Position numbers and translations under genes: made by a program
Assembly (NCBI GenBank): GCA_018896815.1
Contig: JAHILY010000005.1
Coordinates: 1-61,591 of the forward strand
Direction of reading: 5' to 3'
Length of the DNA: 61,591 nt
From: Candidatus Omnitrophota bacterium
GTDB taxonomy: Bacteria > Omnitrophota > Gorgyraeia > Gorgyraeales > Gorgyraeaceae
The notes under the pieces: generated by a model
Told to the model about the DNA's origin: nothing
Database searches by the model: none
Seen by the model: the letters and a program-made list of their open reading frames with translations, nothing else
Part shown: positions 483-57,254 of the stretch, one piece after another
Position numbering within the stretch: position 1 is the first letter of the stretch
Layout of the letters: each line of letters starts with the position of its first letter

Positions 483-1208
483 ATGAGTTTATTAGAGCCA
501 CAGGAAGACTTAAAGGTATTAGTAGAGACATTGAACTTCAAACAAAAGGTCGATCGTTCACTACAGCTTATAAAGGAAGGCTATGATAAATACGGAGACG
601 GTTTTGTAGTAGCCAATAGCCTTGGCAAGGATTCTGTTGCAGTTTGGCATCTTGCAAAACGCGTAGATCCGAAAATACGAGGGTTTATCGTAACTACCAG
701 GTTTAAACCCAAAGAGACGGTCAAGTTTATGAATGAAGAGGTGAGAAAATATCCTGAGCTTAAGGTTTATAAAAACGATGCGAAGATACCAGATAAGCTA
801 TATGAGACAGATCCGAACAAATGCTGCGATATATTAAAGGTCGAGCCTGTTAAGCACGCAGTTGAAGAGATGGGAGTTACGTGCTGGGTAACAGGCCTTC
901 GCTGCACAGAGGGTCGCACCAGGACAGATTTTAAAGAGGTCGAAGAGCGCGATAAAGGATTAATAAAATTAAACCCTATTCTCATATGGAAAGAACGCGA
1001 GGTCTGGCAATATCTGGCCTTATATGGTGTAAAGGTTAATCCTCTATATACTGAAGGTTACCGCTCTCTTGGATGCGCGCCTTGCACTAAGATCACCAAT
1101 GAGGATAATGAACGTGCAGGACGATGGATAGGCACGAGTAAATGTGGAGGCGAATGCGGTATTCATACACGGCCTTTGAAGGTAAACGTTAACGGAGACG
1201 GCATCTAA
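483..1208 (+). CDS. cysH: Phosphoadenosine/adenosine phosphosulfate reductase (CysH family, Cys-rich Fe-S type)
   Basis: ANSLGKDSVAVWH PP-loop-like motif, CCDILKVEP, GYRSLGCAPCT, C-terminal ECGIH. RBS GGGGGAG lies 5' of the ATG. Confidence 0.85.
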   Translation: MSLLEPQEDLKVLVETLNFKQKVDRSLQLIKEGYDKYGDGFVVANSLGKDSVAVWHLAKRVDPKIRGFIVTTRFKPKETVKFMNEEVRKYPELKVYKNDAKIPDKLYETDPNKCCDILKVEPVKHAVEEMGVTCWVTGLRCTEGRTRTDFKEVEERDKGLIKLNPILIWKEREVWQYLALYGVKVNPLYTEGYRSLGCAPCTKITNEDNERAGRWIGTSKCGGECGIHTRPLKVNVNGDGI

Positions 1209-2174
1209 GTGGTTATTACGCTGGTATTAATCATAGTCTCTGTTTTTGTGGCATTAAATATGGGGGCGAGCGGTTTTTCAGTTTCTTTTACTCCCTCATA
1301 TGGCAGCCGTTTGCTGAAAAAGTCCAGGGCAGTTGTTCTTTATGGACTTTGTGTTTTTGCCGGTGGGTTGCTCATAGGGCCGAGGGTTGTAAGTACCCTG
1401 GTCAATAAGATCTCGCTAGCGCAGCTTAACCCATATTCCGGTCTTTTGATCTTGTTTTCGGCAGGGGCCATGATGTTTTTAAGTAACATGCTGAAAATTC
1501 CGCAGTCCACGAGTTTTGTAACTGTGGCGAGTTTTCTGGGGGCGGGCTTATATTACGGAAAGGTAAACTGGCATACGGTTTCAAAGATTATAATCGTAGC
1601 AGCTGTTTTTTCAGCCCTTTCGTTTATAATCACGTATCTTATTAAAAGAAAGATCTACCCGCCGCACAGGGGCAACCTGCATCTTTATGAGAAGTTTCAT
1701 ATTCACAGGAATAAATTTAAAAATTTTATAATCTGGACTGATATGTATTCGGCCTTTGGGATAGGCACGAATAATGTCGCAAATGTTGTGGCTCCCCTGG
1801 TAGGTTCATTGGGCATAAGCCCGTTTTTAGCCCTTGGATTGTCTGCTCCTCTTTTTGGGTTGGGGGCATATTTCTTTGGAGAGAGGGTCTTGAAGACAGT
1901 GTCCAGGGACATAGTGCCGATCGGTGAAATGTCAGCGGCCATTGTTTCATCGATCACAGCGACCTTTGTCATTATCGCGTCGTTATTAGGATTACCTGCG
2001 CCTTATGTCCAGTTTACTACTTTTTCAGTACTTGCGATAAGTTCTGTCAAAGACGGCACAAGGCATACAGCAGGAAAATCTGTTTTTAAAAGGATAATAT
2101 CCGCATGGATATGCGTGCCCGTAGCCACAGTTTTTTTGAGTTTTTTATTACACTTATTTTTTATTAAAAGGTAA
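1209..2174 (+). CDS. PiT (PHO4) family anion permease, CysP-like putative sulfate permease
   Basis: Polytopic membrane protein with the PiT signatures ALNMGASGFS and GTNNVANVVAPL. GTG start abuts the cysH stop. The sulfate role is inferred from context. Confidence 0.7.
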   Translation: MVITLVLIIVSVFVALNMGASGFSVSFTPSYGSRLLKKSRAVVLYGLCVFAGGLLIGPRVVSTLVNKISLAQLNPYSGLLILFSAGAMMFLSNMLKIPQSTSFVTVASFLGAGLYYGKVNWHTVSKIIIVAAVFSALSFIITYLIKRKIYPPHRGNLHLYEKFHIHRNKFKNFIIWTDMYSAFGIGTNNVANVVAPLVGSLGISPFLALGLSAPLFGLGAYFFGERVLKTVSRDIVPIGEMSAAIVSSITATFVIIASLLGLPAPYVQFTTFSVLAISSVKDGTRHTAGKSVFKRIISAWICVPVATVFLSFLLHLFFIKR

Positions 2175-2175
2175 C

Positions 2176-2574
2176 ATGATTTATATAAATAGAGATCTTA
2201 GAAAGGTGCTTATAGAACACTCTAAGGATGAATTTCCGAATGAGGCGTGCGGTCTTTTGGCTGGAAAAGATAACAGAGTCGAGAGGATTTATGGAATGAG
2301 AAATACCGATAAGAGCGCAACGTCATTTTTTATGGACCCGCAGGAACAGCTGAAGGTCATGAAAGAGATGCGCGCTTCTGGCCTTGATTTTATAGGCGTA
2401 TATCACTCTCATCCTGAGACAAAGGCATATCCTTCAGCTCACGATGTTGAGCTTGCATTTTATCCTGAAGTTTCGTATGTAATTGTCTCATTAAAGGATG
2501 GAGATAATCCAGATATATGTTCATTTAAGATTGTAGAAGGGAAGATCACAAAAGAGGAAGTGAGAGTCGAATGA
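2176..2574 (+). CDS. JAMM/MPN+ metallopeptidase (Mec/HcyD/QbsD-like)
   Basis: EACGLL plus HSHPETKAYPSAHD, which fits the H-x-H-x7-S-x2-D JAMM motif. Confidence 0.8.
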   Translation: MIYINRDLRKVLIEHSKDEFPNEACGLLAGKDNRVERIYGMRNTDKSATSFFMDPQEQLKVMKEMRASGLDFIGVYHSHPETKAYPSAHDVELAFYPEVSYVIVSLKDGDNPDICSFKIVEGKITKEEVRVE

Positions 2575-3605
2575 GTTTTGTAGTAGTTGGCACAAATCAC
2601 AGATATAGCCATATTGAGCTAAGAGAGGAAATATCTTTCTCAAAGAGAGGGCTCCAGGATGCCTTTAATTTCTTGAGAGAGACAGGTGTCTTGAAGTCCA
2701 GCGTTATCCTTTCTACCTGCAACAGGGTAGAGATATATGCTTCTACAGGTACGGCTGAGTCTGGAATACACCAGATAAAGGATTTTCTCTCTAGATTTTA
2801 CGAGATCAATGGCAAAGACCTCTGGCCTTACCTTTATATATATAGGGATGAAGACGCCTTAAGGCATTTATTCAGGGTCGCATCAGGCTTGGATTCCCTG
2901 ATCTTGGGTGAATCGCAGATCTTGGGTCAGGTGAACTCTGCATTTCATGAGTCAGGAAAGAATGGCTTTGTAGATCCTTCTTTAGGAGAGATTTTTAATT
3001 CTGCGATCTCATCAGCAGGAAAGGTACATTTACAAACCAGCATATCTGAAGGGAAGGTGTCTATAGGGAGCGTGGCTGTAGATTTTATAAAGGAAAGAAT
3101 AGGAAGTTTTTTAAGTAAAAATATCTTAATTATAGGCGTTGGCAAGGTTACAGAATTGGTTTTGAAGTATCTGGAGAAAGAAGGCAAAAACGTAGTTTTT
3201 ATTTCTAATAGGACTTTTGAACGGGCTCAGTCTCTGGCTCGTCAGATTGGCGCAAAGGCGGTTAAATTTGACAATTTAAAGGAGTATTTAAGTAAAGCAG
3301 ATGTAGTCATCACAGCAACAAAGAGCCCGCATTTTATTATTAATAAACAGATTATAGAAGAAGCTGTCAGTCAAAAACGCTTACTAATTGTAGATCTGGC
3401 TCTGCCAAGAGATGTCGATCCTCGGATAAAAGAGATAGATAGGATAGAATTATTCGATATAGAGGACTTAACGAAAGTTATTCAGAGGAATAGAGATAAG
3501 AAGAAACATGAGGCTCTTAAGGCCGAGCAGATTATAGAAGACGAGGTACAGAGATTATGCCAGGAACTGTCAGGGTTGGGACAAGAAAGAGCCCTCTTGC
3601 GCTGA
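2571..3605 (+). CDS. hemA: Glutamyl-tRNA reductase, short form lacking the usual C-terminal dimerisation domain
   Basis: STCNRVEIY active-site motif, IIGVGKVTEL NADPH fold, LPRDVDP. Only 344 aa. The 3' end overlaps the next gene by 49 nt. Confidence 0.85.
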   Translation: MSFVVVGTNHRYSHIELREEISFSKRGLQDAFNFLRETGVLKSSVILSTCNRVEIYASTGTAESGIHQIKDFLSRFYEINGKDLWPYLYIYRDEDALRHLFRVASGLDSLILGESQILGQVNSAFHESGKNGFVDPSLGEIFNSAISSAGKVHLQTSISEGKVSIGSVAVDFIKERIGSFLSKNILIIGVGKVTELVLKYLEKEGKNVVFISNRTFERAQSLARQIGAKAVKFDNLKEYLSKADVVITATKSPHFIINKQIIEEAVSQKRLLIVDLALPRDVDPRIKEIDRIELFDIEDLTKVIQRNRDKKKHEALKAEQIIEDEVQRLCQELSGLGQERALLR

Positions 3606-5629
3606 AACAAGTGGAAGAAGTTCTAGTTGGGCTAAAAAAATTTCATCCTGATGTAGGATTTGATATTGTTACCATAGATACATATGGAGATATGGATAAA
3701 AAAACACCTATATCAAATATAGAAGGAACGGATTTTTTTACAAGAGAAATAGACCATGCGCTTTTAAGAGACGAGATTGATATTGCTGTTCACAGCGCTA
3801 AGGATTTACCTGACAACTTAAAAGAGGGGATCAAGATAGCGCTTATTACTGAATCAATCGATCCATACGACTGTTTAGTTTCAAAATCCGGGTTAAAACT
3901 TAGCGAACTTCCTCCAGGGGCAAAGATAGGGACGAGCAGTTCGCGCCGCAAGACACAATTGAAGAAATACAGGAGTGATTTTCAGATCGTAGATATACGA
4001 GGAAATATTGAAGAACGTTTAAGATTACTTGATGATCGCGAGCGACGAGTGACGAACGACGAGCGACGAATAGATGCCATTGTTATTGCAGCTTGTGCGC
4101 TGTTGAGATTAGGTTTAAAACAACGCATAACCGAAAGATTGCCTTTTGAGATTCTAAGGCCACATCCTTTACAGGGTTCGTTGGCAGTAGTAACAAGAAA
4201 GGACAAGGTTGATTTGATAAATCTCGTAAAGACAAAGAAGGTCTATATTGTTGGTGCAGGGCCAGGAAGGCCGGATTTAATAAGTGTGAGAGGATTGCGC
4301 ATTCTTAAAGAGGCCGATGTAGTCATATATGATTATCTTGTCGATAAGGCCCTTTTGGATGAGACTAAGCCAGAATCTGAGCTCATATCTTGCGGCAAGC
4401 TTGGCAAGAATAGATTTTCAGGAAAGTCTATCGAGGCACAGGCAAGGATAAGTGAGCTAATTGTTGAGAAGGCTAAAGAGGGAAGGCGTGTTGTAAGACT
4501 TAAGAATGGTGATGCAACTATTTTTAGCCGCCTAAGAGAAGAGCTCGAGGCATTAACTAGAAATAAGATAGAATTTGAAATAGTGCCTGGCGTTACAGCT
4601 GCAAGCGCAGCAGCAGGTTTTAGCGGCATACCACTTACAGATAGGCATGATTCATCCAGCGTTATTTTTTTAACAGGACACGAATCTGATGATAAGAGAA
4701 AAACTAGTATAGATTGGAATAGAGTGGCTGATTTTGAATCCTTGGTTATATACATGGGTGTTGATAGTATCTCAAAAATAGTCTCAGAGTTAATAAAATC
4801 AGGAAAATCCGGCAACACTCCAGCAGCCGTAGTATCAAAGGCAACAGACATAAACCAGAAAACAGTCAGGGGCAAGTTGAAAAATATTGCTGAAAAGGTA
4901 AGGACAGGAGATATTGAGCCGCCAGCGATATTTATTATTGGAAAAACCGCAGAGCTGGAAAAGGATTTTAACTGGTTCAGGAAGAATAAAAGGGTTTTAT
5001 TTACAGGTCTGTCTAAGGAGAGATTCTTTACAGACGGGACCTATTACCACCTGCCTTTGATTGACATAGGGCCACTCGATGACTATAAGGAATTTGACAG
5101 CCATTTGAAGAAAATCAGACAATTTGACTGGATAGTATTTGCAAGCCGCTATGGCGTGGAGTATTTCTTCGGAAGACTTAAAAAAATTGGGCATGACTCG
5201 AGAATACTTAACAACATAAAAATCGCAGGTGTAGGAAATTCTACAAAGGCAAGGCTTCTTGATTTTGGCATTTCAGCGGATCTGGTGCCGCAAAAGGAAT
5301 CTTCAGAAGGGTTGATCGAGGAGTTTGAGAAGATAGATATCAGAGGGAAGAACATATTTTTGCCCCGCTCTGATATATCTGATAAAGGCTTGGAAAAGGC
5401 CTTTCAGAAACTCGGAGCAATAATAGCCACTTCGTCCGCATATAGAAATAGAATTTCCAGAGATTTGCCTGATTTGGACCTGACCAGCTTTGATGAGGTC
5501 ATGTTTACGAGCCCTTCTACAGTAAGGAATTTTAGAAAAAGATATGGAAGATTGCCCGAGCATGTCAAGGCAAAGTGCATAGGGGATGTGACTTTGAGGG
5601 AGGCAAAGAGATGCCGGTTAATAGATTAA
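3557..5629 (+). CDS. Fusion protein: porphobilinogen deaminase (domains 1-2 only) / uroporphyrinogen-III C-methyltransferase / uroporphyrinogen-III synthase
   Basis: N-terminus VRVGTRKSPLALKQ...HSAKDLP...IGTSSSRR...RGNIEERL (HemC). Middle VYIVGAGPGRPDLISVRG...VRLKNGD (CobA/SUMT). C-terminus ...WIVFASRYGV...FTSPSTV (HemD). Confidence 0.8.
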   Translation: MPGTVRVGTRKSPLALKQVEEVLVGLKKFHPDVGFDIVTIDTYGDMDKKTPISNIEGTDFFTREIDHALLRDEIDIAVHSAKDLPDNLKEGIKIALITESIDPYDCLVSKSGLKLSELPPGAKIGTSSSRRKTQLKKYRSDFQIVDIRGNIEERLRLLDDRERRVTNDERRIDAIVIAACALLRLGLKQRITERLPFEILRPHPLQGSLAVVTRKDKVDLINLVKTKKVYIVGAGPGRPDLISVRGLRILKEADVVIYDYLVDKALLDETKPESELISCGKLGKNRFSGKSIEAQARISELIVEKAKEGRRVVRLKNGDATIFSRLREELEALTRNKIEFEIVPGVTAASAAAGFSGIPLTDRHDSSSVIFLTGHESDDKRKTSIDWNRVADFESLVIYMGVDSISKIVSELIKSGKSGNTPAAVVSKATDINQKTVRGKLKNIAEKVRTGDIEPPAIFIIGKTAELEKDFNWFRKNKRVLFTGLSKERFFTDGTYYHLPLIDIGPLDDYKEFDSHLKKIRQFDWIVFASRYGVEYFFGRLKKIGHDSRILNNIKIAGVGNSTKARLLDFGISADLVPQKESSEGLIEEFEKIDIRGKNIFLPRSDISDKGLEKAFQKLGAIIATSSAYRNRISRDLPDLDLTSFDEVMFTSPSTVRNFRKRYGRLPEHVKAKCIGDVTLREAKRCRLID
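4038..4070. repeat. In-frame short tandem/direct repeat (GAGCGACGA units) inside the HemC domain
   Basis: gcGAGCGACGAgtgacgaacgacGAGCGACGAa encodes RERRVTNDERR. This lies where E. coli HemC has only about 3 residues between LD and YDAI. Confidence 0.6.
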
Positions 5630-6627
5630 GAAGACTCAGGAGGAACAGTGCTATAAGAGACTGGGTCAGCGAGACTGTGCTAAGACCCAAGGATCTCATT
5701 TTGCCTTATTTTGTCATCGATGGAAAGGGTGTTGATAGACCTATTAAATCTCTGCCGGAAGTTAGTCATCTATCGATTGACAAATTGCTCAAAGAAATAG
5801 CTAAGGTGGAAAAAAGAGGGATAAGGTCTATTCTTTTGTTTGGAGTACCTAAGAAAAAGGACAAAATAGGATCTGAGGCGTATAATAAGGACGGCATTGT
5901 TCAAAGAGCGACAAAAGCAATAAAGAAAGAATTCGAAGATTTGGTCGTAATAACAGATGTGTGTCTGTGTAGTTATACGTCTCACGGACATTGTGGTATC
6001 ATTAAGGGACAAGGGACCCCATACCACAAGGGTACGGAGCAGGCAAGTGACAAGAGACAAGGGTATATTATAGATAATGACAAGACTTTAAAGATTTTGG
6101 CGAAGATCGCTCTATCTCATGCTGAAGCTGGTGCTGATCTAGTGGCGCCTTCAGCAATGATGGACGGACAGGTAATGTCAATAAGAGAAGGCTTAGACAA
6201 AAATGGATTTAAGGATATAGGGATAATGGCCTATGCAGCTAAATATGCGTCGAATTTTTATGGCCCTTTTAGAGAGGCATTAGATTCTGGTCCACACTTC
6301 GGAGACAGAAAGACCTATCAGATGGATTTTAGAAATTCAGACCAGGCCCTGAGAGAGATAGGCCATGATATTGAAGAGGGCGCTGATATTGTAATGGTAA
6401 AACCAGCCCTTTCATATCTGGATATTATTTATCGGGCAAAAGAGAAGTTTAATGTACCTGTAGCCGCGTATAATGTAAGCGGTGAATATGCGATGGTGAA
6501 GGCATATTCTCAGGGACAGGGGATTGAAAAAGAGTTGGCTCTGGAGATTTTGACGAGCATAAAGCGTGCTGGGGCGGATTTTATAATTACATACTGGGCA
6601 AAAGAGGCAGCGGGATGGTTAAACTGA
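5611..6627 (+). CDS. hemB: Porphobilinogen synthase (delta-aminolevulinate dehydratase), Zn type
   Basis: DVCLCSYTSHGHCG Cys triad, SAMMDGQV, YAAKYASNFYGPFR, MVKPA. ATG 5611 preferred because GGGAGG lies upstream and the N-terminus MPVNRLRRLRR is typical. Confidence 0.9.
   Translation: MPVNRLRRLRRNSAIRDWVSETVLRPKDLILPYFVIDGKGVDRPIKSLPEVSHLSIDKLLKEIAKVEKRGIRSILLFGVPKKKDKIGSEAYNKDGIVQRATKAIKKEFEDLVVITDVCLCSYTSHGHCGIIKGQGTPYHKGTEQASDKRQGYIIDNDKTLKILAKIALSHAEAGADLVAPSAMMDGQVMSIREGLDKNGFKDIGIMAYAAKYASNFYGPFREALDSGPHFGDRKTYQMDFRNSDQALREIGHDIEEGADIVMVKPALSYLDIIYRAKEKFNVPVAAYNVSGEYAMVKAYSQGQGIEKELALEILTSIKRAGADFIITYWAKEAAGWLN
6004..6063. repeat. In-frame repeat-rich insertion (3 x ACAAGGG plus GACAAG) inside hemB
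   Basis: ACAAGGG at 6009, 6026 and 6057; GACAAG at 6049. Encodes KGQGTPYHKGTEQASDKRQG between HCG and IDND, about 15-18 aa more than the E. coli enzyme has there. Confidence 0.55.
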
Positions 6628-7865
6628 GCGACAAGCGACAAGCGACAAGCGACAAGGAGCTTTTTAGCGAAGCCAGACGATTTATTCCTGGGGGCGTAAA
6701 TAGTCCGGTGAGATCTTTTAAGGCTGTTGGGGGAAGTCCTGTCTTTATAAAGAAGGCCTACGGGGATAAGATTTATAGTGAATGCGGCGAAGAGTTTATT
6801 GATTACTGTCTTTCCTGGGGCGCTTTGATCTTAGGGCATACTCACAGGGAAGTAATCAAGGCTATAGAGAGCTCATTAAAGAACGGAACAAGTTTTGGCG
6901 CAGCTACAAGATTGGAGACAGAATTGGCAATGCTTATTGCAGAGGCTGTTCCTTCAATCGAACAGATTAGATTAACAAATTCAGGCACTGAGGCAGTTAT
7001 GGGCGCGGTCAGACTTGCAAGGGCATACACTGGGAAAAATAAGATTATAAAATTTCAAGGCTCGTATCATGGGCACGCAGATTATCTTTTGGATTGCACA
7101 GGCGTGCCAGAGGACTTTAAGAGACATACAATTGTAGTTCCGTATAACGATATAGGCGCTGTTTTAGAAGCAGCTGAGTTGCACAGGGAAGATTTAGCTG
7201 CGATAATAGTTGAGCCAGTTTCCGGGAATTGCGGAGTGGTATTGTCAGACATTGGTTTTTTGCAGGGTTTGAGAAAGATCGCTGATAAATACAACACAGT
7301 TCTTATTTTCGATGAAGTTATTACTGGATTCAGGGTTTCATACAGCGGCGCGCAGGGAATTTTTGGAATAAAAGCAGATATTACCTGCTTAGGTAAGGTT
7401 ATAGGCGGGGGATTGCCGGTAGGCGCCTTTGGAGGAAGAAGGGAAATTATGGATCTTTTAGCGCCCGAAGGAGACGTCTATCAGGCAGGGACATTGTCAG
7501 GTAATCCAGTCGCGGTCACAGCCGGGATCACGACCTTGAAAATACTGAAAGAAATAAATCCATACCCAGATCTGGAAACCAAAACAAAGAAACTATGTGA
7601 AGGGATTATGGCGAGCGCTAAAAAATATGATATAAAGCTGAGGGCTAATTATATTAGTTCTATGTTTAGCATATTTTTTGGAGAAAATGGACAGGATAAG
7701 GGATTATTTAAAAAGTTTTTCCACGGATTATTAAAAAGAGGTATTTATTTTTCACCATCTGGTTTTGAGGCAAATTTTTTGTCAACCGCGCATAGTAATG
7801 AAGATGTAAAGAAGACATTAGATGTGATCGATGAGACATTTGAAAGTTTAAGGAGGTCAGAATGA
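6615..7865 (+). CDS. hemL: Glutamate-1-semialdehyde 2,1-aminomutase
   Basis: [12 protein letters not shown], class-III aminotransferase body, [14 protein letters not shown]-lysine region. ATG overlaps the hemB stop. Confidence 0.9.
6628..6655. repeat. Perfect tandem heptamer repeat (GCGACAA x4) in the first codons of hemL
   Basis: gcgacaa gcgacaa gcgacaa gcgacaa starts directly after the hemB stop (6625-6627). Translated as ...DKRQATSDK... Confidence 0.85.
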
Positions 7866-8995
7866 ATATTCTAATCAATGGTAAAAAAGAAGAGTTAAAA
7901 GATGTTGTTACAGTGGCTAAGCTTTTAGAGCAGAAAAAGATCAGACCTGAGGTCGTGACTGTAGAATTGAACGATAAGATCATAGAAAAGAGCAAATATA
8001 ATGAAATCCAGCTCAAGGACAATGACAGAGTGGAGTTTGTCTATTACATGGGAGGCGGATCCGGAAATAATTCCAAGCTGATGGAAAATGTCCTGGAGTC
8101 GATAGGCAATACGCCCATGGTGAAACTTAATAAGATTGTAACCGAAGATATGGCCCGCATATTCGCAAAACTCGAGTTTTTTAACCCAGGCAGCAGCGTC
8201 AAAGACAGGATATGCCTTTCTATGATCGAGGATGCTGAAAACAAGGGGCTTCTTTCCAAGGGTTCCACCATAATCGAGCCCACAAGCGGAAATACCGGGA
8301 TAGGTCTTGCAATGATTTGTGCTGTCAAAGGCTATAAATGCATAATCACTATGCCCGAGACAATGAGTCTCGAGAGAATCTATATACTCAGGTCTTTCGG
8401 CGCCGAGGTCATTCTTACTTCGGGCGCAGAAGGCATGAAGGGCTCTATTAAAAAAGCTGAAGAGTTACTAAAGAAGACACCAGTGAGTTTTATGCCCCAG
8501 CAGTTCAAGAATAAGGCAAATCCTGCTATTCATAGAGAGACAACGGCCAAAGAGATATTGGATAGCACTGATGGCAAAGTGGATGCGTTTGTTGCCGGCA
8601 TAGGAACAGGGGGGACTATAACAGGCGTAGGAGAAGTTTTAAAGAAACATAACCCTGATGTTAAGATAATAGGGGTCGAACCAGCATCGAGTGCTGTGTT
8701 GTCTGGAAAAGGACCTGGGCCGCATAAGATTCAGGGAATCGGCGCGGGATTTGTACCGGATGTTTTAAATCGTCAGGTAATCGATGAGATAATTCAGGTT
8801 AAGGACAGTGATGCTTTTAAAACCTCAAGGAGATTAGCCAGGGAAGAAGGATTGTTTGTCGGTATATCAGCAGGCGCAGCAGCATGGGCAGCTATAAAGG
8901 TGGCAAAAAATCTTGACAAAGAAAAAAGGGTGGTCGTGATTTTTCCTGATACTGGTGAGAGATATTTTTCAATGCAGCAGTATTTCGAGGCATAG
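7862..8995 (+). CDS. ThiS-like sulfur-carrier domain fused to cysteine synthase (CysK/CysM family)
   Basis: Residues 1-66 are ThiS-sized and end ...[10 protein letters not shown] (8051-8059). Linker SGNNSKL, then [12 protein letters not shown]...NPGSSVKDR...GIGTGGT. Confidence 0.8.
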
Positions 8996-9006
8996 GGAGC
9001 AATTAT

Positions 9007-9864
9007 ATGACTGAATATAATATAAAAGAACTCAAGAGTGGTGGGTTGATGAAGCAGAAAGAAAAGGATATATTTTCTCTTCGTCTGCGTATAGTTGGAG
9101 GTTTTGTCAAATCCGAACAGCTGATCAAGCTTTCGGAGATAGCCGATAGATTTGGTAAAGGATATATACATTTGACCACAAGACAAGGCATTGAGATCCC
9201 GAACGTAAACATCAAAGACTTTGAGAAAGTTAAAAAGGAATTAAACGAAGCTGAGCTTCAGATGGGCGCATGTGGCCAGAGGGTAAGGACAGTAACTGCA
9301 TGCCAGGGAAAGGAATGCAGTCATGGCTTAATAGATTGTCTAATGCTCGCAAGAGAGATCGATCATAAATATTTTGGCATAGGCGGCCACCCTCATAAAT
9401 TTAAGATAGGGATTACTGGCTGTCCAAATGCATGTATTAAACCTCATGAAAATGACTTGGGCATATTAGGCAGATTAAAGAAAAGGTTCGTAAGAGAAAA
9501 GTGTAACTATTGCGGGCTCTGCGCAGAGATCTGTCCAGTAGGCGCAATAGAGGTGGATAAGGACGATGAGAAGATAGTATTTAATGCAGAGAAATGCATT
9601 GGATGCGGAGATTGTGTGTATTCCTGCCCGACTGATGCGTGGCAAAAAAGGCAGGAGGGCTATACTATTTTTGTCGGTGGCAAGATGGGAAAATTCCCGA
9701 AGCTCGGCATAAAGGCCTTTGACTTTATTGAGACAAAAGAAAAGGTCTTTGAGGTCATAGAAAAGACATTAGAGTTTTATAAAAAGTTCGGCAATAAAGG
9801 CGAGAGATTCAGGGAGACATTGGACAGAGTAGGAGTGGAGAAATACAAGGAGACGGTTTCATGA
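9007..9864 (+). CDS. Small sulfite/nitrite-reductase-like protein with ferredoxin insert (Dsr-like/AsrC-like)
   Basis: LTTRQGIEIPNV, CQGKECSHG, TGCPNACIKP siroheme/4Fe-4S-type motifs. Also 2 x CxxCxxCxxxCP (CNYCGLCAEICP, CIGCGDCVYSCP). Confidence 0.7.
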   Translation: MTEYNIKELKSGGLMKQKEKDIFSLRLRIVGGFVKSEQLIKLSEIADRFGKGYIHLTTRQGIEIPNVNIKDFEKVKKELNEAELQMGACGQRVRTVTACQGKECSHGLIDCLMLAREIDHKYFGIGGHPHKFKIGITGCPNACIKPHENDLGILGRLKKRFVREKCNYCGLCAEICPVGAIEVDKDDEKIVFNAEKCIGCGDCVYSCPTDAWQKRQEGYTIFVGGKMGKFPKLGIKAFDFIETKEKVFEVIEKTLEFYKKFGNKGERFRETLDRVGVEKYKETVS

Positions 9865-10097
9865 GTGATGCAGTGCCAAACGAAGTCTTGAACTTGGAGA
9901 ATATAGCGTGTCCGAATAATTTTGTCAGGACAAAATTGAAACTTGAGGAGATGGAAACTGGTCAGACACTGGAGGTAATTTTGGATGATGGCGAGCCCAT
10001 CAGAAATGTGCCTCGAGCCGTAAAGGAAGAAGGCCACGAGATTCTAAAGGCAGAAAAGATAGATAATAAATGGAAGATATTGATTAAAAAAATATGA
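9861..10097 (+). CDS. TusA/SirA-like sulfur-transfer protein
   Basis: 78 aa. N-terminal Cys in LENIACPNNFVRTKLKLEEM and ...LEVILDDGEPIRNVPRAVKEEGH, as in the TusA fold. Confidence 0.6.
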   Translation: MSDAVPNEVLNLENIACPNNFVRTKLKLEEMETGQTLEVILDDGEPIRNVPRAVKEEGHEILKAEKIDNKWKILIKKI

Positions 10098-10107
10098 GGT
10101 GATTACA

Positions 10108-11334
10108 ATGAGTTATGTAAAAGGATTAAAGTGCAGAGAATGCGGCAGGGAGTTTCCTAAAGAGGCCCTCTATGTATGCGAATATTGCTTTGGGCCATTA
10201 GAGGTAGACTATGATTATGAGAATATAAAGAAAAAGCTGACCAGGCAGGTTATAGAATCCCGACCCAAGAATCTCTGGCGCTACAGAGAGCTCCTGCCTA
10301 TTGATGGAGAGCCTACTGACGGCTTGAAATCAGGGTTTACTCCTTTGATAAGGGCAAGGAATCTGGAAAAGGTGCTCGGTGTAAAAGAGCTTTACTTAAA
10401 GGACGACTCTGTAAATCATCCCACGCTTTCCTTTAAGGATAGAGTGGTTGCAGTCGCCCTTTCAAAGGCGAAGGAGTTCGGCTTTAAGACTGTTGCATGC
10501 GCCTCAACAGGAAACCTTGCAAATTCTGTAGCAGCCCAGTCTGCTGTAGCTGGCCTGGAAAGATTTATATTTATACCAGCTGACCTTGAATCAGGCAAGG
10601 TTATAGGCACATTGATTTATAATCCTACTCTTATAGCAGTAGAGGGGAATTATGACCAGGTAAACAGGCTCTGTTCAGAGGTTGCAACAAAATATAAGTG
10701 GGCATTTGTGAATATAAATATAAGGCCTTATTATGCAGAGGGTTCAAAGACATATGGTTATGAGATTGCAGAGCAGTTAGGCTGGAGGACTCCTAAGCAT
10801 ATAATTGTCCCTTGCGCAGGAGGTTCTCTTATTACAAAGATCTGGAAGGGACTAAAGGAATTTAAAAATTTAGGACTGATAAATAAGGTTGATACTAAGA
10901 TTTATGCAGCCCAGGCAACTGGCTGTGCGCCAATTGTTACAGCGATAAAGGAGAATTCTGAGATCATAAAGCCTATCAAGCCCAATACCATTGCCAAATC
11001 ACTCGCAATAGGAAATCCTGCTGATGGCATGTATGCTGCTGCGACTGTAAAAGACTCTGGAGGCACTGCCGAAGATGTTACAGATGATGAAATCGTAGAG
11101 GCAATAAAGCTTTTGGCAGTTACAGAAGGTGTATTTACTGAGACAGCAGGAGGCGTGACACTCGGAGTTACAAAGAAACTCATCGAACAGGGAAAGATCC
11201 CCAAAGACGAAGCAATAGTCGTGTGCATAACAGGAAATGGCTTAAAGACACAGGAAGCAGTGGCTAAAAAAATAGGAAGACCTATAAAGATAAAACCAAA
11301 TATTGCTTCATTTGAAGAACATGTGAAGCTATAA
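10108..11334 (+). CDS. Threonine-synthase-like PLP enzyme with N-terminal Cys4 zinc ribbon
   Basis: CRECGREF...[10 protein letters not shown] ribbon, [11 protein letters not shown] lysine, [17 protein letters not shown] 10108 follows GAGGTG. Confidence 0.8.
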
Positions 11335-11344
11335 AGGAGGTAAT

Positions 11345-11626
11345 ATGTCAGTTAAGGTAAGGATACCAACGCCTTTACAGAAACACACGAATAATCAAGG
11401 AGAGGTCAGTGCGGATGCCACGAATATAAGGAATCTCATCGAGACCCTTGAGAAGAATTTTCCAGGCATTAAAGAGAGGATCTGCGATGAGAGTGGCAAT
11501 ATCCGCAGATTTATCAATATCTATGTCAATGAAGAGGATGTGCGGTTTTTGCAAAAAGACGAAACCCCTCTTAAGGATGGCGATGAGGTCTCAATAATTC
11601 CAGCAATAGCAGGAGGCAGTCAATGA
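11345..11626 (+). CDS. CysO/MoaD-type sulfur-carrier protein with masked C-terminal Gly-Gly (..AIAGGSQ*)
   Basis: [14 protein letters not shown]...[14 protein letters not shown] closely resembles my recollection of M. tuberculosis CysO. Two extra residues follow the GG. Confidence 0.75.
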
Positions 11627-12453
11627 AACTTACAGATGCGCAGATAGAGCGCTATTCAAGACAATTGATATTGCCTAACATAGGCGGCAAGGGCCAGGAA
11701 AAGATTTTAAACGCAAAGGTCCTGGTGATCGGCGCAGGAGGACTTGGTTCGCCTGCGTCGTTATATCTTGCGTCAGCTGGCGTGGGAAAGATCGGCATTG
11801 TGGATTCTGACAAGGTCGAGGTAAACAATCTCCAGAGACAGATAGTGCATTCCACAAGTACTGTTGGGAAGCCAAAGGTAGATTCTGCAAAAGAAAGACT
11901 CAATGCAATAAATCCCGAGATAGAGATAGTGCCTTTCAATCTACGGCTAACCTCTGCCAATATCATGGACATCATAAAGGACTATGATATTGTCGTGGAT
12001 GGCTCTGATAATTTTCCGACGAGGTTTCTTGTAAATGACGCATGTGTTCTGGCTAAGAAGCCTCTTTCGCACGGCGGCATATTCAGGTTTGACGGCCAGG
12101 CAATTACAATCTTGCCAGGTGAAAGTGCATGCTACAGGTGTCTTTTTCCTGAGCCGCCTCCGCCAGGCCTTGTTCCGAGCTGTCAGGAGGCAGGCATATT
12201 AGGTGTAGTTGCTGGGATAATAGGGACTATCCAGGCAAACGAGGTATTGAAATATATACTGAAAACAGGGGATCTTTTGACAGGAAGATTATTGGTGTTT
12301 AACGCGCTGGATTCGAGCTTCAGGCAGGTCAAGGTCCCTAAGGATCCGAATTGTCCGGTATGCGGCAAGAATCCGACTGTTACAGAATTGATAGATTATG
12401 AACAATTCTGTCAAGTGAAACCCAGGTCCGCCGCAGGCGGATCTGATGGCTGA
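11623..12453 (+). CDS. ThiF/MoeB/HesA-family E1-like adenylyltransferase
   Basis: [34 protein letters not shown] and CPVC zinc motifs. Confidence 0.85.
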
Positions 12454-12665: not shown

Positions 12666-12905
12666 ATGCCAAAACTCATTGTACATCTAATATATCCACA
12701 GAAATTAATCAAAGAACCTGTAATCTACACCATGGCTAAAAAATATGATGTAATCCCGAATATCAGAAGGGCCAAGGTCACAGAGGAAATAGGCGAGATG
12801 ACACTGGAACTCAACGGCACAAAGGAAAACCTTGAGGCCGGCAGAAAGTATTTAGAAAAGACAGGAGTCAAAGTCGAACCAGTCGTAGGAGATATTGTTG
12901 AATAA
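12666..12905 (+). CDS. Stand-alone NIL-domain protein
   Basis: 79 aa, LIYPQKLIKEPVIY...NIRRAKV...GEMTLELNG resembles the MetN C-terminal NIL domain. Strong RBS AGGAGGAGG. Confidence 0.55.
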   Translation: MPKLIVHLIYPQKLIKEPVIYTMAKKYDVIPNIRRAKVTEEIGEMTLELNGTKENLEAGRKYLEKTGVKVEPVVGDIVE

Positions 12906-56441: not shown

Positions 56442-57254
56442 ATGTTTCATGAAGTGAGCGAAGCAAAGATCACAAGGGCGATTCTAAGAGAATTTGCCGG
56501 ATGGTTCGAAGAGTATATTACATCAGACGTAATAATCGTAGGCGGTGGGCCGAGCGGACTTACAGCTGCCAGGGATCTGGCAAGGGATGGAATTAAAACC
56601 CTGATTATTGAGGCAAACAATTATTTAGGCGGCGGCTTCTGGATCGGCGGGTATTTGATGAACACATTGACCTTCCGCGCGCCGGCAAATGAGATCCTGG
56701 ATGAATTAAAGATCCCATACAAGGAGGCCGAGCCAGGACTTTTTACCGCAGACGGCCCGAATGCATGTTCAAAGCTTATATCAGCTGCCTGCGATGCAGG
56801 GGTAAAGATTTTAAACATGACCAAGTTCGACGACGTGGTTTTAAGAAACAGCAGGGTAGAAGGCACGGTTATAAACTGGACGCCTGTTTCAGCGCTTCCT
56901 CGGCAGATTACATGCGTGGATCCTGTTTCTCTGGAATCCAAGATCGTTATTGACGCCACTGGTCATGACGCGCATGTCTGCAGGAGCTTGGAAAAAAGAA
57001 ATATCCTGAAATTGAAAGAGTTTGGCCCAATGGATGCAAATACCTCTGAGGACCTGGTAGTGGAGAAGACAGGCGAGATCTATCCAGGACTTTTGGTCTG
57101 CGGCATGGCAGTCTCCACTGCCTACGGCATCCCGCGCATGGGCCCGACATTCGGAGGCATGCTGGTTTCAGGCAAGAAGGTGGCAGAACTCGCAAAAGAT
57201 ATGATACTCGGCGTCGGTAAGGTATCACCCCGACCAGCCGTACTCACCAACTAA
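56442..57254 (+). CDS. thi4: Thi4-family thiazole synthase
   Basis: DVIIVGGGPSGLTAA, GGGFWIGG, VIDATGHDA, GMAV...PRMGPTFGGMLVSG. Confidence 0.85.
   Translation: MFHEVSEAKITRAILREFAGWFEEYITSDVIIVGGGPSGLTAARDLARDGIKTLIIEANNYLGGGFWIGGYLMNTLTFRAPANEILDELKIPYKEAEPGLFTADGPNACSKLISAACDAGVKILNMTKFDDVVLRNSRVEGTVINWTPVSALPRQITCVDPVSLESKIVIDATGHDAHVCRSLEKRNILKLKEFGPMDANTSEDLVVEKTGEIYPGLLVCGMAVSTAYGIPRMGPTFGGMLVSGKKVAELAKDMILGVGKVSPRPAVLTN

Follow-up and report, generated by a model that had tools for sequence, protein, structure and literature searches.

A ThiS-type sulfur carrier fused to a CysK-type cysteine synthase, a probable precursor for JAMM processing in an Omnitrophota sulfate-assimilation operon

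Positions 1 to 61,591 of contig JAHILY010000005.1 from a Candidatus Omnitrophota bacterium (GenBank assembly GCA_018896815.1), the whole stretch analysed here and hereafter called the window, carry an open reading frame (ORF) in which a ThiS-type sulfur-carrier domain runs through three glycines into a complete CysK-type cysteine synthase. We propose that this ThiS~CysK protein is the precursor polyprotein of a protein-thiocarboxylate route to cysteine. To the full mechanism, from the precursor to the release of cysteine, we assign a probability of about 0.66 on the basis of sequence evidence and analogy to characterised systems. Its parts differ in strength. The protein is very probably a precursor that must be cleaved after Gly66, as the comparison of homologous sequences indicates. 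That the thiocarboxylated carrier (ThiS-COSH) is the sulfur donor of this CysK is an expectation we favour with some reserve.

The start ATG of the fusion ORF shares an ATGA with the stop codon of hemL, and an AGGAGG lies 6 nt upstream of it. Residues 4–66 match the Pfam ThiS family (PF02597; E = 3.5e-12, 47.1 bits against a cut-off of 22.5), and residues 79–363 match Pfam PALP (E = 1.8e-78). The N-terminal domain also passes the NCBIfam thiS equivalog (TIGR01683; 69.4 bits against a cut-off of 37.45, covering positions 1–64 of the 64 in the profile). In PDB sequence alignments, Gly66 falls on the last residue of Bacillus subtilis ThiS (1tyg_B, E = 5e-9) and on the YFMGGG end of Geobacter metallireducens ThiS (2k5p/3cwi, E = 9e-11). 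The C-terminal domain passes the NCBIfam cysK equivalog (TIGR01139; 468 bits against a cut-off of 351) and lies below the cut-offs of both cysM equivalogs (305 vs 394 and 294 vs 413 bits), models that are built on enterobacterial CysM and not on the sequence of Mycobacterium tuberculosis CysM. Its pyridoxal phosphate (PLP) lysine, Lys114, is located within SSVKDR, the TSGNTG (Asn) loop is present, and the best PDB sequence match is CysK (2egu, E = 2e-117). A first-pass annotation made from the DNA letters had described a domain of ThiS length, ending in YYMGGG and fused to a complete cysteine synthase of the CysK/CysM type. The ORF, the Pfam and NCBIfam matches, and the PDB alignments bear out this description, including the lysine in SSVKDR, except that the synthase is of the CysK and not of the CysM type. 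The seven-residue linker (SGNNSKL) given there was too long. The fused CysK domain shares 63% identity with the genome's stand-alone CysK, and because this homology already begins at Ser71 (SKL), the true spacer comprises about four residues (SGNN).

An AlphaFold2 model of the full chain, calculated with 72 homologs, has a mean predicted local distance difference test score (pLDDT) of 81.6 and consists of an N-terminal domain with the order beta-beta-alpha-beta-beta...beta and a confident CysK domain. The carrier tail and the spacer (residues 61–81) are disordered in this model, with pLDDT values below 50. A Foldseek search with the full-length model returned only CysK/O-acetylserine sulfhydrylase A structures (8srt, 1z7w, and 2q3b; 54–58% identity, TMt 0.88–0.93), and the peptide-bound O-acetylserine sulfhydrylase structures 3tbh and 5xoq are also among the matches. 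When the ThiS domain was modelled alone with 53 sequences, the pLDDT rose to 91.9. The top Foldseek matches of this model are all ThiS structures, namely 3cwi (TM 0.88), 1zud_2 (ThiS in the ThiF complex, TM 0.86), and 1tyg_B (ThiS in the ThiG complex, TM 0.83), and also 1f0z. The N-terminal domain is thus predicted to have the beta-grasp fold of ThiS, and the lack of this fold, which the first-pass annotation had named as a ground for refutation, is not seen.

The translated product has no free C-terminal Gly-Gly. Because Gly65-Gly66 run in frame into 311 further residues, a free carrier end would need proteolysis, and because no stop codon follows GGG, ThiS cannot be translated separately; the earlier expectation that the fusion is made as one chain therefore holds. 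Independent translation of CysK from an internal ATG at 8081 was considered and set aside. The Gly codons GGAGGCGGA make a GGAGG, which at 25 nt upstream of this ATG is too far away for a ribosome-binding site, the methionine is not conserved in homologs, and ThiS would still be left without a stop codon. The first-pass annotation was right that ATG 8081 has no usable ribosome-binding site but wrong to call it the only internal ATG, since in-frame ATGs also occur at 8048 (Met63) and 8117 (Met86).

The fusion is widespread. In a search among 5.8 billion protein clusters, ThiS plus PALP was found in all 120 best matches, which have 73–81% identity to the query and are called simply 'cysteine synthase A' in the database. 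In total the fusion occurs in more than 120 distinct protein clusters (at 90% identity), which derive from many assemblies made independently. All 120 best matches have [YHF]MGGG followed by a linker of 2–21 residues that varies freely in sequence, the first residue after GGG being S, M, E, Q, C, L, G, D, K, T, R, or A. Met63-Gly64-Gly65-Gly66 does not vary across 72 full-length sequences and 53 sequences of the domain. When one genome per species was scanned, 80 related loci were obtained, from Omnitrophota, Saganbacteria/Margulisbacteria/WOR-1, Elusimicrobiota, Zixibacteria, Nitrospirota, Ratteibacteria, Sumerlaeota, Caldisericota, and Dictyoglomota. Their gene order is strongly conserved as CysH, CysP, JAMM, (hem genes), ThiS~CysK, sulfite reductase, TusA, ThrC-like enzyme, second carrier, E1, and NIL. 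A fused ThiS~CysK ORF is present in 57 of the 80 loci, in one unbroken frame in 56 and broken by frameshifts in the other (L016). Across several phyla, ThiS is always located directly upstream of this CysK paralogue or fused to it.

ThiS and CysK are separate adjacent genes in about 20 of the related loci. In L035 and L046, a stop codon follows GGG immediately and CysK begins 35 nt further on with an AAGGAG of its own. The split ThiS ends in GGGN in L078 and L082, and in GGG(G)(R)YAF in L063, L068, and L070, where the CysK ATG (MPFSDR) lies 1–4 nt behind the Gly codons in the +1 frame. The remaining split loci have ThiS tails of 2 to about 30 residues after GGG. Because many fused proteins keep the initiator methionine of CysK (GGG-MPFSDR), one nucleotide can make the difference between a fused and a split form. 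At the DNA level, the Gly codons of MGGG spell GGAGG-like strings (window positions 8048–8059), and a one-nucleotide change turns two overlapping genes into a fusion. In the maximum-likelihood tree built from the CysK domain (74 rows), fused forms lie among split ones, with 10 changes by parsimony, at least 2 of which are forced by branches with a support of at least 95%. Such frequent flips imply that both states are functionally equivalent, and this equivalence would be possible only if the residues after GGG are removed.

The operon encodes a JAMM peptidase with an intact metal site (Glu23 and His77-Ser-His79-x7-Ser87-x2-Asp90), which matches 2kks (E = 1.4e-29) and PfJAMM1 (5lda, E = 5.5e-14) in the PDB. 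It is the only JAMM (Prok-JAB) of the genome. In the related loci, a JAMM gene is found in 46 of 80, at the conserved position after CysH and CysP. Among the 34 loci lacking one, 31 are not known to reach this position, and most of these 31 contigs stop no more than about 5.6 kb upstream of ThiS, in many cases within the hem genes. L078 and L080 are on longer contigs, and their JAMM lies at another site in the genome; a genome-wide check of five loci found one elsewhere for three of them. We also surveyed a phylum sample of 151 genomes, in which a genome was scored as fused if it gave a junction-spanning, stop-free match, and related genomes are not independent. Nine genomes from seven families are fused, without internal stops, and in all nine a JAMM lies on the same contig within 0.1–6 kb, as compared with any JAMM at all in 55 of the 142 others. 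The first-pass annotation had named the operon JAMM as the candidate for releasing the carrier, and the metal site, its uniqueness in the genome, and the linkage to the fusion wherever contigs extend far enough agree with this. The one exception is L053 (discussed below), the single observation that counts against the model. All computational checks of the first-pass reading favoured it.

Carrier–enzyme fusions of a similar design have been characterised in molybdopterin synthesis. HvJAMM1 cuts linear SAMP1-MoaE exactly after the terminal Gly both in vitro and in vivo, and the cut is needed for activity (PMC4443979). DR0402 of Deinococcus radiodurans cuts the natural MoaD-MoaE fusion DR2607 (PMC8832034), and MoaX of M. 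tuberculosis must be cleaved after Gly82 (PMC4326299). As in these proteins, an N-terminal ubiquitin-like (Ubl) domain is joined here through Gly-Gly to its partner enzyme, and an intact JAMM is encoded in the same genome; the known fusions are inactive until cut exactly after the last Gly, with a JAMM/MPN+ enzyme as the cutter. They serve molybdopterin synthesis with MoaE as the partner, whereas the present fusion belongs to a cysteine pathway with a PLP sulfhydrylase as the partner. The MoaD-MoaE fusions cut by JAMM are the closest precedents, beyond the QbsD and HcyD cited in the first-pass annotation.

The features of the fusion and of the operon around it are listed in Table 1.

Table 1. 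The ThiS~CysK fusion and its gene neighbourhood in the window.
Feature	Position	Strand	Description	Basis
ThiS~CysK fusion ORF	7862–8995	+	377 aa, one reading frame	
ThiS-type beta-grasp sulfur-carrier domain	7862–8059	+	residues 1–66, end YYMGGG (61–66)	Pfam, NCBIfam, PDB, AlphaFold2/Foldseek
Junction	8051–8071	+	Gly64-Gly65-Gly66 at 8051–8059, spacer SGNN at 8060–8071	predicted JAMM cut between 8059 and 8060
CysK-type O-acetylserine sulfhydrylase domain	8072–8995	+	residues 71–377	NCBIfam, PDB, Foldseek
CysH-type (phospho)adenosine phosphosulfate reductase	483–1208	+		Pfam, NCBIfam
CysP/PiT-type sulfate permease	1209–2174	+		Pfam, NCBIfam
JAMM/MPN+ metallopeptidase	2176–2574	+		Pfam Prok-JAB, E 1.2e-26
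hemA, hemC-cobA-hemD, hemB, hemL	2571–7865	+	siroheme precursor genes, between JAMM and fusion; order shared by many related loci	Pfam
Small sulfite-reductase-like protein	9007–9864	+		NIR_SIR, NIR_SIR_ferr, and Fer4 matches
TusA	9861–10097	+		E 7.6e-22
Zn-ribbon ThrC-like PLP enzyme	10099–11334	+		Pfam PALP, NCBIfam thrC 305 bits
Second carrier, MoaD/SAMP-like	11345–11626	+	93 aa, end AIAGG-SQ	Pfam ThiS, E 1.3e-17
ThiF/MoeB-type E1 adenylyltransferase	11623–12453	+	276 aa, CxxC...CxxC	Pfam ThiF, E 3.7e-87
Stand-alone NIL-domain protein	12666–12905	+	closes the conserved cluster; in most related loci	Pfam NIL, E 1.8e-16

The carrier, the PLP cysteine synthase, the JAMM, and the E1 are all encoded within 10.3 kb on one strand. 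The E1 consists of a ThiF domain without a rhodanese domain, and TusA and the sulfite reductase are encoded nearby instead; these two are probably the relay and the source of reduced sulfur, respectively. The C-terminus of the E1 is a Gly-rich tail (window positions 12424–12450). The genes of the second carrier and the E1 overlap by an ATGA in the window, where sulfite reductase and TusA are separate, overlapping genes; the latter two form one fused ORF in L017, L019–L021, L030, L037–L040, and others. The ThrC-like enzyme is probably the acceptor enzyme for the second carrier in a homocysteine arm. As this carrier ends in GG-SQ, it also needs trimming, and the JAMM is the predicted processing enzyme of both carriers.

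The host genome (1.5 Mb, 93.5% complete) contains exactly two ThiS-family domains, both in this operon, and one real E1 match, the E1 of Table 1. A role of the ThiS domain in thiamin synthesis, judged unlikely in the first-pass annotation, is rejected: ThiG was not found in the 93.5%-complete genome, where only a 23-bit fragment match was obtained, and there are two Thi4 genes, one of them in the window (56472–57152). The genome also encodes CysE and a second, stand-alone CysK on another contig (C73, L084:1010–3646), located between an Rrf2-type regulator and a DUF39 protein. The DUF39 protein beside this CysK is of the homocysteine-synthesis type. The true ThrC is on contig C49, adjoining homoserine dehydrogenase, and the ThrC-like enzyme of the operon is its paralogue. 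In this genome, each of the two sulfur amino acids thus seems to be reached by parallel routes.

The closest known carrier-dependent route to cysteine is that of M. tuberculosis (CysO/CysM/Mec+/MoeZR), in which the carrier thiocarboxylate attacks an aminoacrylate and Mec+ hydrolyses the CysO-Cys adduct (Burns et al. 2005, as summarised in PMC3227635). We propose the following mechanism. The operon would provide sulfate uptake and reduction, since it encodes CysP, CysH, a siroheme sulfite reductase, and the precursors of its cofactor. The 377-residue chain is translated in one piece, as its sequence shows. The JAMM would then cut the peptide bond after Gly66, giving ThiS as a 66-residue protein that ends in Gly-Gly, and CysK as a normal enzyme; the assignment of this cut to the operon's JAMM follows the analogy to the processed fusions described above. 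The single E1 would adenylate the terminal glycine of ThiS, and the adenylate would be converted into ThiS-COSH by sulfide from the sulfite reductase or by a persulfide on TusA. The CysK domain would make aminoacrylate from O-acetylserine, ThiS-COSH would attack it, and an S-to-N acyl shift would give ThiS-GGG-Cys. By analogy to CysO/CysM/Mec+, the same JAMM is predicted to hydrolyse the ThiS-Cys adduct, which would release cysteine and recycle the carrier. All steps from adenylation onward are modelled on established systems. Like Mec+, the JAMM would also be required to free cysteine from the adduct, a role that the first-pass annotation omitted. The second carrier and the ThrC-like enzyme would act in parallel as a homocysteine arm, served by the same E1 and JAMM. 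Fusion of a carrier to its downstream gene would cost nothing, because the JAMM removes whatever follows Gly-Gly, and lineages would therefore flip between the split and fused forms.

The use of ThiS-COSH by a CysK-type enzyme is the weakest step of this mechanism. It is supported by the invariable adjacency or fusion of ThiS to this CysK paralogue across phyla, by the fusion of the same ThiS subfamily to MetY-like sulfhydrylases, and by the ability of the CysK active-site cleft to accept the C-terminal tails of partner proteins, as in the CysE-CysK complex. Several points weigh against the proposal. The enzyme domain is an ordinary CysK by sequence, as its equivalog scores and its 63% identity to the stand-alone CysK indicate, and mycobacterial CysM, which is specific for O-phosphoserine, is the sole cysteine synthase that has been characterised as carrier-dependent. 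With CysE and a second CysK, the genome has a conventional route from sulfide as well. A rhodanese domain like that of MoeZ is missing from the E1. The co-occurrence of a JAMM alone cannot distinguish precursor processing from cysteine release. Finally, a Dictyoglomaceae metagenome-assembled genome (MAG; G151, locus L053) contains both ThiS~CysK and carrier~E1 fusions, and no JAMM was detected in it by the Pfam model or with the window JAMM as the query at E-values up to 1. In this locus, hemL directly follows CysH at the usual JAMM position; either the MAG is incomplete or another peptidase acts. A second MAG (L074; 0.6 Mb, labelled Pacearchaeota), which encodes ThiS~TusA, likewise gave no JAMM match with the window JAMM query even at E = 1.

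The alternative that survives best, although we consider it unlikely, is that the fusion is processed but neutral. CysK would then use free sulfide and O-acetylserine, ThiS would serve the ThrC-like enzyme, a thiolation, or some other acceptor, and the genes would be fused merely as neighbours, with the protease making read-through harmless. The standard CysK character of the enzyme domain and the presence of CysE fit this explanation, as do the frequent flips between the fused and split states and the variety of downstream partners to which such carriers are fused (E1, TusA, MetY-like enzymes, and topoisomerase I). Neutral fusion does not account for the constant position of ThiS, always upstream of or joined to this one paralogue in several phyla, while the second CysK is encoded elsewhere under an Rrf2-type regulator. 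The ThrC-like enzyme is already paired with the second carrier, and a search of the genome gave neither ThiG nor another client for ThiS or MoaD. The ThiS fusions to MetY-like sulfhydrylases point instead to PLP sulfhydrylases as the clients.

It is considerably less probable that the cut after GGG is made by another peptidase or by autocatalysis and that the JAMM only frees cysteine or homocysteine from the carrier adducts. The study of mycobacterial MoaX did not name the protease responsible for its cleavage (PMC4326299), and the Dictyoglomaceae MAG bears the fusion without a detectable JAMM. Against this, JAMM proteins are the only enzymes shown to cut linear fusions of prokaryotic Ubl proteins, the Gly-Gly|X bond of the fusion is of the same kind as the bond in the adduct, the fusion sequence contains no intein or autoprocessing motif, and JAMM is linked to the fusion in all nine sampled fused genomes.

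We regard it as very improbable that the chain stays uncleaved, with ThiS as a permanent N-terminal docking or regulatory appendage that has lost its carrier function. Some enzyme-fused beta-grasp domains are indeed non-carrier modules, for example in Ubl-ThiF fusions (PMC1779556). However, an appendage of this kind would explain neither the strict conservation of MGGG beside a hypervariable linker nor the unfused orthologs that end at GGG, and the toggling between fused and split forms is frequent. The score of the domain above the ThiS equivalog cut-off over its full length also speaks for a carrier. An assembly or sequencing artefact, by a lost stop codon or a frameshift, is rejected, for although a single nucleotide between the Gly codons and the CysK ATG can be all that separates a split from a fused form, the fusion recurs in the many independently assembled clusters, in unbroken frames in all but one of the 57 fused loci, and without internal stops in nine genomes from several families of the phylum sample.

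The operon resembles the CysO/CysM/Mec+/MoeZR system in that a beta-grasp Gly-Gly carrier, a PLP cysteine synthase, a JAMM, and an E1 are encoded together. It differs in five respects. The carrier is a 66-residue ThiS-type domain and not of the CysO/MoaD type (about 90 residues), it is covalently fused to the synthase, the synthase is of the CysK type and not an O-phosphoserine-specific CysM, the E1 lacks the C-terminal rhodanese domain of MoeZ, and the genes are part of a full operon for sulfate reduction and siroheme that also contains a second carrier arm.

Masked carrier termini are also known from QbsE of thioquinolobactin synthesis, which is trimmed by the JAMM protein QbsD, and from Wolinella succinogenes, where HcyS-Ala is reportedly trimmed by HcyD in a system with HcyF, MetY, and sulfite reductase. 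The Wolinella work is that of Krishnamoorthy and Begley (2011), listed as ref. 34 in PMC5764234. With these systems the operon shares residues beyond Gly-Gly, a JAMM in the cluster, an E1 without rhodanese, and sulfate-assimilation genes. Their extensions comprise 1–2 residues as compared with a whole enzyme of 311 residues here, and their acceptor is MetY (for homocysteine) or a siderophore precursor, unlike the CysK in this operon.

The cluster corresponds to neighbourhood class 4e of Iyer, Burroughs and Aravind 2006, which combines ThiS/MoaD, JAB, and E1 with sulfate-assimilation genes (PMC1779556). The census of Ubl fusions in the same work lists ThiS-ThiG, MoaD-MoaE, ThiS-sulfite reductase, and Ubl-ThiF, and not ThiS-CysK (PMC1779556). 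Literature searches returned no description of a ThiS-CysK fusion, and there is none in PMC4326299, PMC8832034, or PMC4443979. The fusion is a variant of carrier-dependent cysteine synthesis and of the JAMM-processed carrier–enzyme fusions, and not a new kind of system. In molybdopterin synthase, a JAMM frees a carrier that was synthesised as part of a fusion precursor; the present fusion, with its ThiS-type carrier and ordinary CysK, would bring this principle to the assimilation of sulfur into amino acids. If ThiS-COSH does feed CysK, carrier-dependent cysteine synthesis would reach beyond the specialised mycobacterial CysM, and many members of uncultured anaerobic phyla would be expected to use the route (Omnitrophota, Saganbacteria/Margulisbacteria, Elusimicrobiota, Zixibacteria, Caldisericota, and Dictyoglomota). 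It would have been missed in metabolic reconstructions because databases call these proteins 'cysteine synthase A'. The natural series of split, short-tailed, and fused forms offers a ready substrate panel for the specificity of bacterial JAMM enzymes.

A more far-reaching and, in our opinion, doubtful idea is that the cleavage is a regulated step and not housekeeping. Before the cut, the chain would be a zymogen with a silent carrier and possibly a silent synthase, and the single JAMM would gate the flow of sulfur into cysteine and homocysteine. In a wider sense, JAMM-linked carriers of these phyla would be polyproteins with any downstream gene (CysK, TusA, E1, MetY, or topoisomerase I), a bacterial counterpart of the ubiquitin-fusion precursors, and the carriers, which are similar to the SAMP/UbaA/desampylase system by sequence, might even modify proteins. 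In eukaryotic ubiquitin precursors (ubiquitin-ribosomal protein fusions and polyubiquitin), the N-terminal fusion is freed by a Gly-Gly-specific peptidase, and the fusion ensures co-expression. The known enzymes that process ubiquitin precursors are mostly cysteine proteases and not JAMM proteins, and the released product is a protein modifier, whereas the product here is a sulfur carrier.

The termini of the carriers vary widely among relatives. Orthologs of the second carrier have a bare GG end in 12 loci, 1–2 extra residues in about 20, and longer tails in a few, and in eight loci (L045, L052, L053, L055, L071, L078, L081, and L082) this carrier is fused through its AIAGG end to its E1. For the ThiS subfamily, we surveyed the 150 closest representatives of the 66-residue domain in a library of 1.84 billion proteins. 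The chain ends exactly at Gly-Gly in 35 representatives and continues for 1–3 residues in 36, 4–10 residues in 30, 11–50 residues in 34, and more than 50 residues in 13. The last class includes fusions to CysK, TusA, and MetY-like sulfhydrylases. Among the library matches listed for the 66-residue domain, there are one full-length CysK fusion (P0134) and a few truncated fragments. Members of the subfamily fused after GGG to TusA or to MetY-like enzymes of the O-acetylhomoserine sulfhydrylase type are found in L074 (9980–10429) and in P0149, P0151, P0196, and P0200.

A ThiS-like domain ending in VGGG was also observed at the N-terminus of DNA topoisomerase I (Toprim, Topoisom_bac, and Zn ribbons), in L098 (275–2524, plus strand) and L097 (383–2878, minus strand). 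To our knowledge, a fusion of TopA to a carrier with the ubiquitin fold has not been described. The linker between the two parts consists of either 4 residues or about 65 residues rich in Lys, Ala, and Pro. This fusion is absent from the window's own genome and is present in about 25 of the 151 Omnitrophota genomes, nearly all of which have a JAMM.

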